From an uncultured SAR86 cluster bacterium (GTDB taxonomy: Bacteria > Pseudomonadota > Gammaproteobacteria > Magnimaribacterales > D2472): a stretch of DNA of 64,000 bases. Of this stretch, positions 19,849-63,552 are shown piece by piece (positions within the stretch are counted from its first letter, which is position 1; each line of letters opens with the position of its first letter). A model generated the notes under the pieces. That model was not told the origin of the DNA. It saw only the letters and a program-made list of their open reading frames with translations, and made no database searches. The position numbers and the translations under genes were made by a program. The stretch lies in assembly GCA_905181595.1 (NCBI GenBank), contig CAJIYI010000001.1, positions 3,551-67,550 of the forward strand, read 5' to 3'.

Positions 19849-20986
19849 ATGAAAAAATACTTACTGCTGTTTAGGTGTTGTCATTCTTTCATCTTGCCAA
19901 GATGGAACTGTGGTTGAGGAGGCAGTTTTGATTGGCACAGAAACCAATGCAGCTGAAACCTTAGAGCAAAATCCAAACATCAAAGCTAAGAACATCATTT
20001 TATTTATTGGTGATGGCATGGGACCCAATCAAGTTGCTTTAGCAAGATTTGCTGTTGGCGGAGCAAACCATCGACTCTCGTTTGAAAATTTTCCTGTCAC
20101 CGGCATTGTTTTGAATCACTCGGCTGAGAATCTCTATACATGACTCAGCTGCAGCTGCGACCGCATGGGCCGCCGGAGTTAAGACAAAAAATGGCTATCT
20201 TGTCTGTTGATTCTGATAATAAATTCTTGCCAACCATCCCAGAGCTTTTAAGCACTAAGGGCTATTTAACCGGCTTGGTCGCAACTTCTTCGATCACGCA
20301 TGCGACCCCAGCAGCTTTTTATGCTCACATTAAAAGTCGCTCCAAGCACAAGCAAATTGCTCAAATGCTTGTTGAATCAGACATAGCTATCGCTTTAGGC
20401 GGAGGCTCCGAATTTTTTAAATTGCCGTTATCAGATCAAACAATACATCTAATCGAAAATGGGCAGTCCCTGGACCAAGACAAGCTGGCTCAGCATGCAA
20501 GGGTGCTTGGACTATTTGGCTGAAGATGGGTCTGGACAGAAGATTGTCTCCACCGACGCAACTTAAAATGACAGGGAACAGCATTAGATTTTCTTGATTC
20601 TAAAACATCGAATTGCTCAGGATTCTTTTCTCATGTCGGAGGGCAGCCAAATTGATTGGGCTGGCCATGACAATAACGTGAAGTACATGCTCGCTGAGTT
20701 TGCTGACTTTGATGATTCGGTTGCAGCCGCAATAGAATTCGCAAAGCAGGACAAAGAAACTTTGATTTTAGTTACTGCAGATCATGCGACTGGAGGCTTG
20801 GTTTTGCAAAAACCTAGAGGCTCTAGCGTTAGAGCTCAATGGACAACGACAAGTCATGATTTATCATCAATTAATATTTATGCCTATGGACCAGGAGCAG
20901 AAAAATTTTCTGGTGTCATGGACAACACTGAAATTTTTGATCGTATGTTAGCAAGTTCTGGACTACGAGAACCTAGATTCAAATAA
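19849..20986 (+). pseudogene. phoA: alkaline phosphatase (PhoA family) lipoprotein, heavily frameshifted
   Basis: Motifs FIGDGMG, DSAAAATAWAAGVKTKNG, ITHATPAAFYAH, GFF-LMSEGSQIDWAGHDNN and TADHATGG are recovered only by switching frame about 7 times. The switch points are near 19870, 20139, 20200, 20522, 20535, 20575 and 20630. The corrected N-terminus carries the lipobox ILSSC. Confidence 0.75.
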
Positions 20987-58434: not shown

Positions 58435-59599
58435 ATGAATAATCTTTCTAATCGAGTTGGCATTATTGGAGGAGGGATAGCTGGCCTCACTCTTGGCTGT
58501 ACTTTATTAAAAGAAGGGATTCCAGCTGTTATTTTTGAACAATCATCAGAAGAAAAATCTCATGGGGCTGCAATCTCTCTTTCTCAAAACGCACTGCGTC
58601 TATTAGACAGAATCAATATTTTCAGTAATTTAAAAGATCAATCATTTGTTAATACCAAAGCCTCAATCAACAGCCCTCAACACGCAATTTGTGAATTTAA
58701 AACTCCTGAAGTATTAACCACTCGCAGACAAACATTAATGACTTTGCTTCTAGAGCAATACATGAGCCTGGGAGGAGAAATTTTTTATAAGCATACTTTT
58801 AAAAGCTTTGATCAAAGTAACTGTGAAGCTACTTTCGAGAATAATGAAAAATACTCTCTTAGCCATTTAGTGGCATGCGATGGAATTCGATCTTCAATTC
58901 GAGAGCAGTTTTTTACCCCAAATCAAAAGCCACGATATAGTGGTTATAGCGCATGGCGAGGGATAGGCAAATCCAATCTTCAAAATGTACATTTTGCCTT
59001 AGGTCCCGGCAGTCATATTGTTTCTTATCCTATTAATAATGAGGGCGATGTTAGTTTTGTGGCCTGCACCAAAGAAGAATATGAATTTACAGAATCCTGG
59101 AAAGAGGAGGGTTCATACAATGATTTATTGGATGATTTTTCAATCTATGATCCAAAGATTTTTCCTGTCATTGAAGATTCAATGAAATTATATAAATGGG
59201 GCATATACATAAGACCTCCGCTTAAATCGATGATTGCCCATAACTTAACCTTGGTTGGTGATGCCGCTCATCCCATGGTTCCATTTTTAGGGCAGGGCGC
59301 TTGCATGGCTATCGAAGATGCTTATGCATTTGGGATACTATGCAAAATACACAAATGGTGATTTTGCTGAGGCTCAAAAGGTATTCAATGCCGTAAGAAG
59401 GTCTCGAACTAAAAAAATTCAGAGAAGCTCGATGATGCAAGGAAAAATCTATCACATGAAAAATCCATTACTTGTTGCTGCGCGTAATGCCGCCATGCGA
59501 TACACAAATATCCCAGGCAATGATTTAAAGAGTATTCATGACTATGATGTGGAAGACGCAATTAAAATTCATATAAATAATGAGCGGCACACACCCTGA
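58435..59599 (+). CDS. FAD-dependent aromatic-ring monooxygenase (salicylate hydroxylase/UbiH-like; apparent frameshift)
   Basis: The motifs are GIIGGGIAGLTLG, CDGIRSSIR and GDAAHPMVPFLGQGACMAIEDA. ORFs 58435..59361 and 59318..59599 join near 59340. Confidence 0.75.
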
Positions 59600-59699
59600 G
59601 ATCTTTCCTTAATGAAGCAGGGGTAATTTTAGTTAGGTAATATTGACATCATTTATGCCAATATATAACCTAAGATAATAAAAATAAGGAAATAAAGAA

Positions 59700-61782
59700 A
59701 TGAAACTTAGCAAATCTTTTATCGGGCTGGTGACTGTCTCAACAATTTTTATGCTTTATGCATCTGGTTTATACACAAACTTTCAAAGTGACTCAGCGCT
59801 TGAAATTGTAGATTTTTCTATTGCTAAACCTGCAAGCGAAAAAAATATTCCATCAAATCCAGATCGTGTACCTCTTTATGGAGACCTGCATGTTCATACC
59901 AAATATTCTTTTGATGCATATATTTTTGGAGTGACTGCTACTCCATATGATGCATACAAATATGCAATTGGCGAGGCCATTAAGCATCCTCTGGGATTTG
60001 ATATGAAATTAAAAGAGCCTTTGGACTTTTATGCAGTGACCGATCATGGTTTTTACATGGGAATGATAGAAAATTATGCTGATACTTCCTCAAAGATGTC
60101 TAAGAATGAATGGACCAAGCCAATGCATAATCTTAATAGGCCTGAAAATGTTACGGTTGAATCTCTTGGTGCAAGAGCCGATCTCTTTAGCTCTGTCCTG
60201 ACTCAAGCTATCATCAAGCCATACCCATATTGGCATCCAAAAGTTTGGAAAGCTTGGCTCACAAACAATATTCAAGTAGCCCTCCAATCATTTGATTATG
60301 ATGTACATAAATCAGCTTGGGCAGATGTTGCAAATGCTGCCGAAGAATTCAATGACCCTGGAAAGTTTACAACCTTTATTGGCTATGAATTTACAACTTC
60401 TACAGATGTCGAGGGCGGTAATTTGCACAGAAATGTTATTTTTAACTCTTCAGATGCTCCGATTAGACCTTGGACTAGAATTGATTCTATAAATCCAGAG
60501 GATCTATGGACATGGATGGATGGTTTAAGAGATCAAGGCGTGGACTCTTTAGCGATGCCTCACAACAGCAACGGCTCTAATGGACAAATGTTTGAAGTAG
60601 AAACATTTAGAGGTAGTGCAATCAGCAAAGAATATTCTGAAAAGCGAATGAGAAATGAACCTGTTGTCGAAATCACTCAAATTAAAGGAACTTCTGATAC
60701 CCACCCCTTACTCTCACCGGACGATGAATGGGCAGATTTTGAAATCATGGATAAAAGAGTTGGAAGCAGACCTCCTACTTACAGCATGCCTCAAGGAGGT
60801 TATGTAAGAGATGCATTTTTAAGAGGGCTAACATTGGAATGGAAAGGCCAAGGCAACCCTTATAAATTTGGTGTAATTGGATCAAGTGATACACATACTG
60901 GTGCTGGAGGTTTTGATGAGGATAATTATTGGTCAAAAGCTGGAGTGTTGGATGGAACTGATATGGGCAGAGGAAGTGTGCCTCTTACTCAAGATCGAAT
61001 TGATCAGCTTGATAAATATGCTGATGTTTATGATCAGCCCATAAGCATTCAAGAAATTGGTGGCCAAACCTATGCAGATGTTGGATTTGATCAATGGGGC
61101 GCATCAGGCTTAGCAGTTGCCTGGGCAGAAGAGAATACTCGCGATTCGATATTTAAAGCTTTTAAAAGAAAAGAAACATTTGCAACAACTGGCACCAGAA
61201 TGGCAGTCAGGTTCTTTGCTGGCTTTGACTTGGAATCAATTGATTTGGAGTCTGAAGAAATGGTAAAGAATGCTTATGCCAAGGGCGTAACCATGGGCGC
61301 TGATTTATTTGGTAACAACGATCAAGCTCCACAATTTTTAGTTTGGGCTCAACGCGATAAGCTTGGAGCTCCACTTCAAAGAGTTCAAATTATCAAGGGA
61401 TGGGTTGAAAATGCATCTGGAACACCAAAAGAACAAGTTTATGATGTTGCCTGCTCAGATGGTCTTACGGTTGATCCAATCACGAATCGTTGCCCAGATA
61501 ATGGCGCAAGAGTAAACATTAATGACTGCTCTATTTCAAATGATGTTGGTGCGGTAGAGCTAAAAACTACTTGGGACAGATCCAGAGTTTGATCCAACCA
61601 TTAAGGCTTTCTACTATGTAAGAGTTCTGGAGAATCCAACTTGTCGATGGTCAACATGGGATGCTATTAAGGCTGGAGTTTCGCCAAGACCTGATCTTCA
61701 TAAAACAATACAAGAGCGTGCATGGTCATCACCCATTTGGTACATACCAGAAGCTAGCGAATTAGATATTATTCCTTTATAA
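59700..61782 (+). CDS. DUF3604 domain protein (PHP-like putative metallo-phosphoesterase), exported (apparent frameshift)
   Basis: It has an N-terminal hydrophobic signal or anchor. [14 protein letters not shown] is an HxH PHP-type motif. The conserved tail [29 protein letters not shown]...WSSPIWY is in another frame and ends at TAA 61780-61782. The junction is near 61578. Confidence 0.7.
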
Positions 61783-61797
61783 GTTTTAGGACTACCA

Positions 61798-62598
61798 ATG
61801 AATCTTAGGATAATTGTATTTTTTATAATTGGGTTAGTAATATTTTTACTTGATATTGGTTTGAATTCCCAAGAGGATTCAAAAGATATTTACGTATCTG
61901 ATCAAGAATTAACCAGTTTATTGTCTGCTTGGCAATCTCAAGTTGGAAGGCCTCCAAGCGATGAAGAAATAGTCAATATCATCAATAATCTTGTTCAAGA
62001 AGAGATTCTTTACAGGGAAGCTTTGCTATTAGGGCTAGATCAAGAGGATAGGATCATCAAAAGACGATTGGCTCAGAAAATTACTTTTTTAAAACAAGAA
62101 ACTATACCTACTGAACCGTCAGAGTCAGAGTTGCAAGAATTCTTTGAAACCAATAAATCAAATTACTTTATGCCAGCTACCTATTCTTTTACGCATCATT
62201 ATTTTTCCAAAGAGTCGAATGCGAAAGAGCGTGCAAACTTAGCTTTTAATGCTTTGACTGAAAATGGAATCGAACCAACCGGAGATCCATTTTTTCTTGG
62301 CAAGAATTTCTATCAAAATACAGCTGCAGAAATTGATAGAAACTTTGGGCCGTCTTTTTTATCTGCATTAAAGGCAATAGACTTAAATCAATGGTCGGGT
62401 CCTCACTCATCAGCTTTTGGAGAGCATTTAGTGTATTTTAAAAATACTTCAGCTGGATTTTTACCGGCATGGGAAAAAGTGAAGGGCGCGGTTACCCAAG
62501 ATTACCTTACTCAAGCTCAAGACGATGCCATCAAAAACTACCTTAAAGAAATTAAATCTGAATACAGAGTAATTATTAATCCCAATTACCAATTCTAA
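61798..62598 (+). CDS. membrane-anchored PPIC/SurA-like chaperone-domain protein (tentative)
   Basis: It has an N-terminal TM helix. The EILYREALLLGLDQEDRIIKRRLAQKITFL pattern is seen in Rotamase_2-type proteins. No catalytic motif was verified. Confidence 0.4.
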   Translation: MNLRIIVFFIIGLVIFLLDIGLNSQEDSKDIYVSDQELTSLLSAWQSQVGRPPSDEEIVNIINNLVQEEILYREALLLGLDQEDRIIKRRLAQKITFLKQETIPTEPSESELQEFFETNKSNYFMPATYSFTHHYFSKESNAKERANLAFNALTENGIEPTGDPFFLGKNFYQNTAAEIDRNFGPSFLSALKAIDLNQWSGPHSSAFGEHLVYFKNTSAGFLPAWEKVKGAVTQDYLTQAQDDAIKNYLKEIKSEYRVIINPNYQF

Positions 62599-63552
62599 TG
62601 TTCTCAAGACTTGGTACTTTTTTTATATTAATCTTTTGTTCTTCTTCACTTTTTTCTCATGAATTTAATCCCGCTCACTTAGTTGTAAATGAGAGTGAGG
62701 AAAATATTTATGAAGTTAAGTGGATGTATCCCTCAAAAAATATTGGCTCCAGAGGAGAGGTATTTTTTCCAACGAACTGTGCAAGAGAGAGTGGAGTACC
62801 TCTGCAGCAGGGCAAATATCTAGTTGAAAAAATTAGCCTTACTTGCGATCAATCTCTTAAAGGTCTAGCCATAGAGGTTAGAAACTTAAGTGTGCTAACA
62901 GATGCCCTTGTTACCATCACCCACTTGAATGGAGAAGTATTTGAGGGCTTGCTCAATGTAAAAAAATCATCTACTTACGGTTCCTTTAAAAGAGCAGGTT
63001 TACCCTTTGGCTTACTTTACTTTGGGCGTAGATCATTTAATGAGCGGCAAGGACCATATCTTGTTTATTTTAGGCTTGCTGTTTTTGGTATCGGGTCTTT
63101 TTAATGCAATCAAAACCATTACAGCCTTTACCCTAGCGCACAGCATTACTCTGGGTCTTTCTGTGTTTGAATTGGTATCATTGCCTCAAGCTAGCGTCGA
63201 GGCAATTATTGCATTAACAATTATTTATCTAGCAATTGAAATTAGTACTCAGAAGCGATACTCAGCCACTCCTTGGCTTATTGCTTTTGGGTTTGGGTTG
63301 CTGCATGGACTGGGTTTTGCGAATGCTTTAACAGGTATTGGCATTGGTAATGAGCAGCTTTTTCTGTCCCTATTATTTTTTAACTTGGGCATAGAGGCTG
63401 GACAGTTATTGCTCCTTCCCATATTTGGTTCTCTGATCTGGGTAGCCGATAGATATAATTATTACAATCAAGCCGCCACACTGACATCATTGATTTTAGG
63501 TGGCATGGGCTTCTTCTGGCTTATCGATAGAACCATTAGCATTTTAGGCTAA
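62598..63552 (+). CDS. HupE/UreJ_2 family membrane protein (apparent frameshift)
   Basis: The signal peptide ends ...SSSLFS/HEFNPAH, giving a His-rich mature N-terminus. The membrane domain has GVDHLMSGKDHILFILGLL and GLLHGLGFA. The junction is at the A7 run 62960-62966. Confidence 0.65.

Follow-up and report, generated by a model that had tools for sequence, protein, structure and literature searches.

Three tightly packed genes on the plus strand at positions 59700-63552 of a 64,000-nucleotide stretch from an uncultured SAR86 cluster bacterium (contig CAJIYI010000001.1 of assembly GCA_905181595.1; the whole stretch is called the window here) encode, in this order, an exported DUF3604 protein (gene 1), a Rotamase_2 protein with a transmembrane anchor (gene 2) and a HupE_UreJ_2 permease (gene 3). 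By our estimate the chances stand level that this trio is a folding-plus-metalation module, with an enzyme and two envelope helpers in one operon. A first-pass annotation of the same DNA had put forward a self-contained module that delivers metal to, and folds, a periplasmic metallo-phosphoesterase. Its delivery-and-folding part appears reasonable in view of the conserved synteny, the invariant ligands, the non-Tat export, the type of chaperone and the N-terminal-His layout of the permease, and it is still what we infer, whereas "self-contained" was too strong, because parvulin-HupE pairs exist that have no DUF3604 gene, and the majority of DUF3604 paralogues are found elsewhere. The components belong to known families, and no paper describing their combination was found in the literature.

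Conservation of the three-gene arrangement

The adjacency of the three genes is far beyond chance, because the trio recurs in 30 of 80 unrelated DUF3604 loci. These loci were taken from one genome per species among Gamma- and Alphaproteobacteria, Acidimicrobiia, Acidobacteriota, Myxococcota, Binatia and other groups, and were searched with custom hidden Markov models. Both partners were present within 3 kb of DUF3604 in those 30 loci, a parvulin-like gene only in 2, and HupE_UreJ_2 only in 0. By group, the full trio was detected in 13/46 gammaproteobacterial, 14/20 alphaproteobacterial, 1/1 acidimicrobial and 2/5 acidobacterial loci. The co-occurrence of DUF3604, HupE_UreJ_2 and Rotamase_2, on which the first-pass annotation had staked its proposal, is conserved across several phyla. 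The usual gene order was DUF3604 (often as a tandem duplicate), parvulin and HupE, with a few loci in the order parvulin-HupE-DUF3604, and on SAR86-like contigs the homologues of gene 2 were always found between DUF3604 and HupE_UreJ_2, although the surrounding genes were of three different kinds.

Gene content was compared across 250 gammaproteobacterial genomes, with each family represented by one or two. HupE_UreJ_2 was present in 75 of these genomes and a strong DUF3604 match in 16; the permease was found in 15 of the 16 genomes with DUF3604 versus 60 of the 234 others, and in 13 genomes of the 250 the two genes were located on one contig within 3 kb of each other.

In the window, the arrangement described before, with a short gap and an overlap, was recovered exactly when the coordinates were re-read (Table 1). 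The gap between genes 1 and 2 is 15 nucleotides (nt), from the corrected gene 1 stop to the gene 2 ATG, and the stop of gene 2 and the start of gene 3 share the sequence TAATG.

Some loci depart from the common organization. At L097 and L098, where no HupE gene follows the parvulin gene, a substitute permease was ruled out, the next genes being dapA and smpB. One SAR86-related lineage showed an extra open reading frame (ORF) of 72 amino acids (aa) without Pfam match between DUF3604 and the parvulin-like gene (L012, 7780-7998; L013, 6413-6631), and upstream, in the same lineage, a PepSY_TM gene and a 361-aa gene without known family. A 333-aa open frame at G016:C2:46141-46476 fuses DUF3604 profile positions 3-54 to HupE_UreJ_2 positions 91-154 and resembles a deletion of most of the trio. 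In Halieaceae (L107, L111), DUF3604 occurs as tandem genes that lack the helper pair, and behind them come genes for an FMO-like monooxygenase and for a protein of metallo-beta-lactamase fold. Finally, the 1.41-Mb SAR86 genome itself contains five DUF3604 loci and a distant 752-aa relative, with the partners at the window locus only. Among the further loci (Table 1), one is intact (614 aa) and two are broken, one of them with 11 in-frame stops, and the distant relative shares the ligand motifs GDLHVHT, NDH, GWEWT, IPHG and SSDNHG.

Gene 1: an exported DUF3604 protein with PHP-type ligands

The first of the two frames of gene 1 (630 aa) matched PF12228 with 629.6 bits over profile positions 2-534, and the remainder, in a shifted frame, matched the last 58 positions (534-591) with 96.7 bits, the curated cut-off of this family being 20.4 bits. 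The protein is about 98% (98.4%) identical in aa to the intact 693-aa protein of a close relative (P0123/L200). Its description as an exported DUF3604 protein of about 690 aa with a PHP-type HxH motif was therefore upheld by the Pfam match, by the length of the intact relatives and by the motif itself, present at residues 61-74.

An alignment of 72 diverse DUF3604 sequences showed H64, H66, D72, D115, H116, E230, H243, H288, N289, D397 and H399 to be invariant, so the PHP metal ligands looked for in such an alignment are there, and the window copy keeps all those in PHP order (H64, H66, D72, H116, E230, H243, H288, D397, H399). Four cysteines of the C-terminal part (C585, C598, C610, C648) were nearly invariant in the same sequences. 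The order of the ligands (HxH, D/H, H, E, H, H, DxH) is that of the trinuclear sites of the PHP superfamily, such as the one of YcdX. In the AlphaFold2 (AF2) model of an intact relative (P0121; predicted local distance difference test, pLDDT, 93.4), strands and helices alternate, and the ligands lie at the tips of consecutive beta-strands in a barrel, which is followed by a C-terminal beta-sandwich. This sandwich weakly resembled the lipid-binding sandwiches of RhoGDI/UNC119 (E about 0.02), and no function was read from the likeness.

The PHP phosphoesterases YcdX and RNase AM/YciV (7ug9) are the closest known counterparts of the modelled DUF3604 site, which has their ligand order (HxH, D, DH, E, H, H, DxH) along the successive strands of the model. 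In contrast to them, DUF3604 proteins are about 690 aa long, contain large insertions and an extra Cys-containing beta-sandwich, are exported, and have no profile-level homology to PF02811. Escherichia coli YcdX also has a neighbouring helper protein, YcdY.

Concerning export, a loose pattern for twin-arginine translocation (Tat) signals matched the N-terminus of 1 of 79 DUF3604 proteins, and a lipobox was present in at least 32 of the 79. In the SAR86 forms the signal or anchor is simply hydrophobic; for the window protein it would be a signal anchor or a signal peptidase I signal, whereas most relatives have a lipoprotein signal. With Sec or lipoprotein signals in place of Tat signals, DUF3604 proteins would therefore be exported unfolded and acquire their metal outside the cytoplasm. 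No functional paper on DUF3604 was found in the literature, and according to a 2026 preprint neither metal binding nor activity had been reported for it.

Gene 2: a putative membrane-anchored chaperone

Gene 2 is intact and matched Rotamase_2 (PF13145; E 6e-10, 40.4 bits, cut-off 27) behind an N-terminal hydrophobic helix that constitutes the membrane anchor. A profile built from 33 members of its family matched Campylobacter PEB4 (3rfw; E 9e-10) over the entire periplasmic part, and also SurA (1m5y; 1.7e-7), HP0175 (3.4e-7) and PrsA (4e-5). The earlier assignment of a membrane-anchored, SurA/PPIC-like protein agrees with these matches. The best-conserved stretch of the family is the SurA-N-like helical region, EEILYREA..LGLD..D.IIRRRL.QK. 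Conserved residues of the parvulin part are W199, G201, P202, S205, G208 and H210, while most members also retain the first His and the Asp of GDPF. From these sequence comparisons, gene 2 is best described as a membrane-anchored chaperone of the SurA/PrsA type, for which prolyl isomerase activity is possible.

As in PEB4 (Cj0596, 3rfw), HP0175, SurA and PrsA, SurA-N-like helices wrap the parvulin domain of gene 2, and the His...D...S..G.H pattern is largely kept. Gene 2 differs from these chaperones in its N-terminal transmembrane anchor, in its translational coupling to a permease and in its tie to a specific client family.

Gene 3: a permease with a His-tipped periplasmic domain

The first frame of gene 3 (168 aa) comprises a signal peptide and an N-terminal domain without Pfam match, and the second frame matched HupE_UreJ_2 (PF13795; E 5.5e-43, 146.8 bits, cut-off 24.5); a weak match to PF04955 (E 1.2e-5) was also obtained. 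Behind the signal peptide, with a cleavage site predicted by eye (SLFS|HEFNPAH), the mature protein would begin with HEFNPAH; LGVDHLMSGKDH is also present, as is the membrane motif VDHLMSGKDH. All the features by which the first-pass annotation had recognized a HupE/UreJ_2-type protein, HEFNPAH and DH..GKDH included, were found, and what it had left unsaid is the frame break in this gene.

At least 90% of 33 aligned homologues of gene 3 have the predicted mature N-terminal His, and so do 11 of 13 copies linked to a parvulin gene. In the same 33 sequences, the polar residues H146-x5-D152-H153, H181, E201, H236, N262, E266 and Q269 of the membrane helices are conserved, as well as two Cys in the N-terminal domain, which is about 115-130 aa long. 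Residues 26-127 form a beta-sandwich in the AF2 model of a relative (P0241; pLDDT 87.9) and are followed by seven long helices (137-316), which, judging from the model, make up the HupE_UreJ_2 membrane domain. The HX5DH motif of the first membrane helix is essential in HupE. It is conserved in gene 3, which belongs to the same clan as the HupE/UreJ family PF04955 (Rhizobium leguminosarum HupE); it differs from that family in being a member of the sister family PF13795, in its added periplasmic domain and in not lying beside hydrogenase or urease genes.

The nearest layout to that of gene 3 was described for the HupE/UreJ-2 "anglerases" Ang-1 and Ang-2, in which a mature N-terminal His and a beta-sandwich bind Cu and Ni by a mono-histidine brace (Franco Cairo et al., Nat Commun 2025; PMC12537917). 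Binding occurs through His1, with dissociation constants of 74 nM for Cu and 220 nM for Ni, and the authors of the crystal structure of RbAng-1a (PDB 9GCE) suggest a passage of metal from this domain to the permease (PMC12537917). Anglerases and gene 3 have a layout in common: the signal peptide, the mature N-terminal His (predicted for gene 3), a periplasmic beta-sandwich domain (modelled for gene 3), the linker and the PF13795 membrane domain. However, the N-terminal domain of gene 3 is shorter (about 115-130 versus about 175 aa), has its own HE[FV][NR]PA start and contains two conserved Cys, and the neighbourhood lists of the anglerase paper include neither a DUF3604 nor a parvulin partner (PMC12537917). 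We take the N-terminal domain of gene 3 to function in the manner of an anglerase and do not assign it to Ang-1.

Proposed mechanism

In the folding-plus-metalation module, the DUF3604 protein would be made with a Sec-type signal and exported unfolded. Outside the cytoplasm it would fold into a large barrel carrying a PHP-like cluster of His, Asp and Glu residues for two or three metal ions, together with the Cys-containing C-terminal beta-sandwich. The product of gene 2, tethered by one helix at the inner membrane and with its parvulin domain inserted in a PEB4/SurA/PrsA-type chaperone, would hold and fold the DUF3604 protein at the membrane surface. The product of gene 3 would be a HupE-type metal permease, with HX5DH in its first membrane helix, and the free N-terminal His of its periplasmic beta-sandwich would bind a transition metal; this domain could then hand the metal to the folding DUF3604 protein, or the channel could supply it from the cytoplasm. 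The hand-over, the direction of transport and the identity of the metal are what we infer in this scheme, in which the DUF3604 protein may act as a phosphoesterase.

A related concept exists for MeeF and MeeY, TerC proteins of Bacillus subtilis, which are membrane metal transporters that metalate Sec-exported enzymes (PMC10550928). They share with the trio the idea of an integral membrane metal transporter serving enzymes exported unfolded, but they belong to an unrelated family, serve general clients with Mn, and lack a dedicated chaperone or client gene in their operon.

Evidence against maturation, and metal acquisition as an alternative

Several results weigh against the folding-plus-metalation module. 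The membership of DUF3604 in the PHP superfamily is not proven, being based on motifs and a weak fold match, with homology statistically not established: a Foldseek search of the PDB with the DUF3604 model gave no match with E <1e-3, the PHP domain of RNase AM (7ug9) appearing at rank 13 (E 0.042, probability 0.85, TM(target) 0.43); the PHP model PF02811 gave no match to DUF3604 at E up to 10; and hhalign aligned only the first two motifs of the DUF3604 profile with a DnaE PHP alignment (probability 3%), DnaE being the sole PHP comparator because streamlined related genomes hold no other PHP protein. A profile search of PDB sequences likewise revealed no sequence-related solved structure for DUF3604. 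Of the first-pass annotation's reading, the PHP-type metal ligands are supported and the assignment to PHP itself is not. As for gene 3, its N-terminal domain did not match RbAng-1a (9GCE) by phmmer (E up to 1) or by a PDB profile search (E up to 10), and 9gce was found by Foldseek with the gene 3 model only weakly, at rank 3 (E 0.11, probability 0.82, TM(target) 0.33). No experiment is known on any DUF3604 protein or on this HupE_UreJ_2 subtype. Moreover, about 60% of the DUF3604 loci have no partners nearby, and on the DUF3604 tree linkage to the partners has a scattered distribution that calls for at least 16 changes (rows L047 and L078 of that tree are wrongly labelled "unlinked"). Given this scatter, unlinked DUF3604 paralogues are common, and they may be served in trans by the helpers. 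A single subfamily made up of the partner-linked DUF3604 proteins was rejected on the same count of changes. The clustering of frame breaks, described in the next section, belongs with these points.

The published model for such HupE/UreJ-2 proteins, uptake into the cell in place of delivery to a periplasmic client (PMC12537917), is also contrary to maturation and leads to its main rival, metal acquisition. In this alternative, a metal-bearing substrate (a metallophore or a metal-organic phosphoester) would enter by an outer-membrane receptor and be cleaved in the periplasm by DUF3604, the His-tipped domain of gene 3 would catch the metal, the permease would import it, and the chaperone would only fold the enzyme. 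Capture and uptake are what is proposed for Ang-HupE/UreJ-2 proteins, and TonB-dependent receptors are the commonest family among the 114 genes flanking the module (8/114), one of them lying directly upstream in the SAR86 relative L010. Members of the HupE family are Ni/Co importers, which points in the same direction. Nevertheless, the receptors represent only about 7% of the neighbours examined, in a 1.4-Mb genome that has 18 receptor matches anyway, and no genes for metallophore synthesis or metal regulators were seen nearby. Metal acquisition also leaves unexplained the dedicated chaperone that is always beside the permease when the permease adjoins DUF3604. For these reasons we consider it unlikely, if the most serious competitor of the maturation proposal.

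Frame breaks in the locus

A single additional base interrupts gene 1, and another interrupts gene 3, as revealed by a three-way alignment of the window with L175, a 4.6-kb metagenome contig, and L200 (GCA_028341375.1), both of 95% DNA identity (Table 1). In these two relatives the trio is intact, with proteins of 693, 266 and 317 aa. The FAD-dependent monooxygenase gene directly upstream is split in the same manner, whereas L009 and L200 have it unbroken, with products of 382 and 395 aa. Past each break, the frames remain open and are 94-98% identical to the relatives, and the identity of gene 1 to L200, 98.4% in aa versus 95% in DNA, indicates purifying selection. The same type of break was found in the essential genes ileS and valS of the assembly, outside the window (Table 1), whereas rpoB is intact (1359 aa). 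As ileS and valS are indispensable and yet split likewise, the breaks in the trio are most probably assembly errors, and the completeness of this two-contig assembly, 87.6%, is as would be expected if errors broke marker genes. We are accordingly quite confident that the breaks in the window genes arose in the assembly, and the organism itself probably has a working module. The explanation that all breaks are homopolymer errors was rejected, since only the gene 1 site is within a G run.

The distribution of the breaks fits less well. All three are clustered in four adjacent genes, with 13 neighbouring syntenic genes unbroken, an outcome with a chance of about 4% for breaks distributed evenly in proportion to gene length, and this clustering keeps real local decay in play. 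The locus would then be in the course of being lost from this strain, through very recent inactivating mutations that each added a base to the monooxygenase, the DUF3604 or the HupE_UreJ_2 gene. DUF3604 paralogues with heavy damage occur in the same genome, as does a broken PhoA. The like breaks in ileS and valS, the open and highly similar downstream frames and the completeness value of the assembly all argue the other way, and make genuine loss an improbable reading of the locus.

Phosphate scavenging

The first-pass annotation had also connected the module with a PhoA and an acid phosphatase that look degraded, as an alternative organophosphate hydrolase. No support was found for this connection: genes of the module carry single-base breaks of the kind also present in ileS and valS, so that "degraded" is largely a property of the assembly, and the genes of the module are themselves "degraded" by the same criterion. 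A phosphate-scavenging phosphoesterase system replacing the lost PhoA and acid phosphatase would be in keeping with the superfamily, as all characterized PHP-superfamily enzymes, to our knowledge, hydrolyse phosphoesters, and the damage to the PhoA remnant looks greater than a single-base error, with several frames and missing profile segments (Table 1). This remnant may be truly decayed or may be located in a poor stretch of the assembly; in either case it is irrelevant to the module, because the module is conserved in many genomes, whatever their PhoA status.

The neighbourhood and the upstream regions did not favour phosphate scavenging either. The commonest families among the 114 flanking genes were the TonB-dependent receptors, flavin monooxygenases (6), amidohydrolases, enoyl-CoA hydratases and dehydrogenases, and no phosphate-acquisition family (pst, pho, phn) was present among the 25 commonest. 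Six aligned upstream regions contained promoter-like elements only, with no convincing Pho, Zur or Fur box, and a TGACA...TGCCA repeat was rejected as a Pho box on account of its 12-bp spacing, its overlap with the -35 element and its restriction to close relatives. Taken together, these data leave the replacement of PhoA by the module with little probability.

Table 1. Position of the features at the module locus and of the other sites mentioned; coordinates are those of the window, except where they begin with G000, C1 or C2
Feature	Position	Strand	Details
Alkaline phosphatase (PF00245) remnant	19985-20953 (G000:C1:23535-24503)		At least 3 frames, in-frame stops; profile segments 212-259 and 323-380 missing
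FAD_binding_3 (FAD-dependent) monooxygenase, upstream of gene 1	58435-59599		One extra base at 59350 gives two frames, 308 + 93 aa
Promoter-like TTGACA-N15-TATAAC upstream of gene 1	59643..59669	+	Putative; read from the sequence; not returned by a consensus scan
Ribosome-binding site AAGGA of gene 1	~59687-59691	+	Read from the sequence
Gene 1, exported DUF3604, putative hydrolase with PHP-like metal site	59700..61782	+	PF12228; two frames, 59700..61592 and 61564..61782
One extra base splitting gene 1	61573..61577	+	Window TTGGGACAG; L200 TTGGACAG; L175 TTGGGAAG
Gene 2, putative membrane-anchored SurA/PEB4/PrsA-like chaperone with parvulin domain	61798..62598	+	Rotamase_2; 266 aa, intact
Gene 3, HupE_UreJ_2 permease	62598..63552	+	PF13795; two frames, 62598..63104 and 63007..63552
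CAT codon, predicted mature N-terminal His of gene 3 (SLFS|HEFNPAH)	62658..62660	+	Sequence
One extra base splitting gene 3	62970..62973	+	Window ATCATCTACTT; L200 ATCATCT-CTA; L175 ATCACTA-CTT
ileS, outside the window	G000:C1:497791-500566		Adjacent frames, 807 + 131 aa
valS, outside the window	C1:348177-350661		Adjacent frames, 679 + 187 aa
Further DUF3604-type loci of the same genome	G000:C1:333077-334906; C1:688801-690599; C1:1043006-1044697; C2:54670-56148

HupE_UreJ_2 in other gene arrangements

The genes upstream of HupE_UreJ_2 were counted at 80 loci of this family from the gammaproteobacterial class sample. The first upstream gene encoded Rotamase_2 in 13/56 cases and a TPR protein in about 12/56, and the second encoded DUF3604 in 9/39 and DUF4331 in 5/39, the orders TPR-DUF4331-HupE and DUF4331-TPR-HupE being confirmed by direct inspection. 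The type of mature N-terminal domain of HupE_UreJ_2 tracks the partner: forms starting with AHE[VF][RN]PA, with a domain of about 130 aa, have a parvulin partner, and those with TPR/DUF4331 partners start with AHKPSDS (mature N-terminus HKPSDS) and have a longer domain, about 164 aa. In addition, short forms exist, with an AHG[VM].E start and 25-28 aa.

Along with the neighbour counts, this co-variation suggests HupE_UreJ_2 as a general hub with exchangeable adaptors and clients. We propose tentatively, and with more doubt than conviction, that the long form might be the shared hub of a modular and widespread maturation of exported metalloproteins, in which the subtype of the His-tipped domain co-varies with adaptor and client and the permease delivers metal outward to clients folding at the membrane, not only imports it. 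The HE[FV][NR]PA domain of about 130 aa would be paired with a parvulin adaptor and a DUF3604 client, and the HKPSDS domain of about 164 aa with a TPR adaptor and a DUF4331 client.

In Gammaproteobacteria (L023, L049, L071, L077, L057, L036), long HupE_UreJ_2 genes recur in company with genes for a TPR protein and for DUF4331, which is exported; no paper with DUF4331 or PF14224 was found in the literature. In the genome of the window, a second SurA_N/Rotamase_2-like gene was located at L014 7016-9497 (G000:C1:311015-313496). It is a 434-aa ORF with a GNAT-like N-terminal part, it overlaps a 396-aa HupE_UreJ_2 gene of mature start AHNRSES, and a luciferase-like monooxygenase gene comes next, with a 4-nt overlap. 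There is no DUF3604 gene nearby.

Significance

How metal is supplied to enzymes that are exported unfolded is poorly understood, and few systems are known, among them the TerC proteins. The operon described here joins a large family of uncharacterized enzymes, represented by several paralogues even in a streamlined 1.4-Mb SAR86 genome, to a putative dedicated chaperone and a presumably metal-capturing permease. If the hub proposal were true, the HupE_UreJ_2 permease would supply metal outward rather than only importing it. The module is present in cultured strains of Hyphomonas (H. oceanitis SCH89, L155), Pacificimonas (P. pallii WHA3, L151) and Alteromonas (Alteromonas sp. D210916BOD_24, L160), so it can be tested at the bench, and the trio offers a genetic handle on the function of DUF3604, on an anglerase-type role of HupE/UreJ-2 proteins and on metalation in the periplasm.

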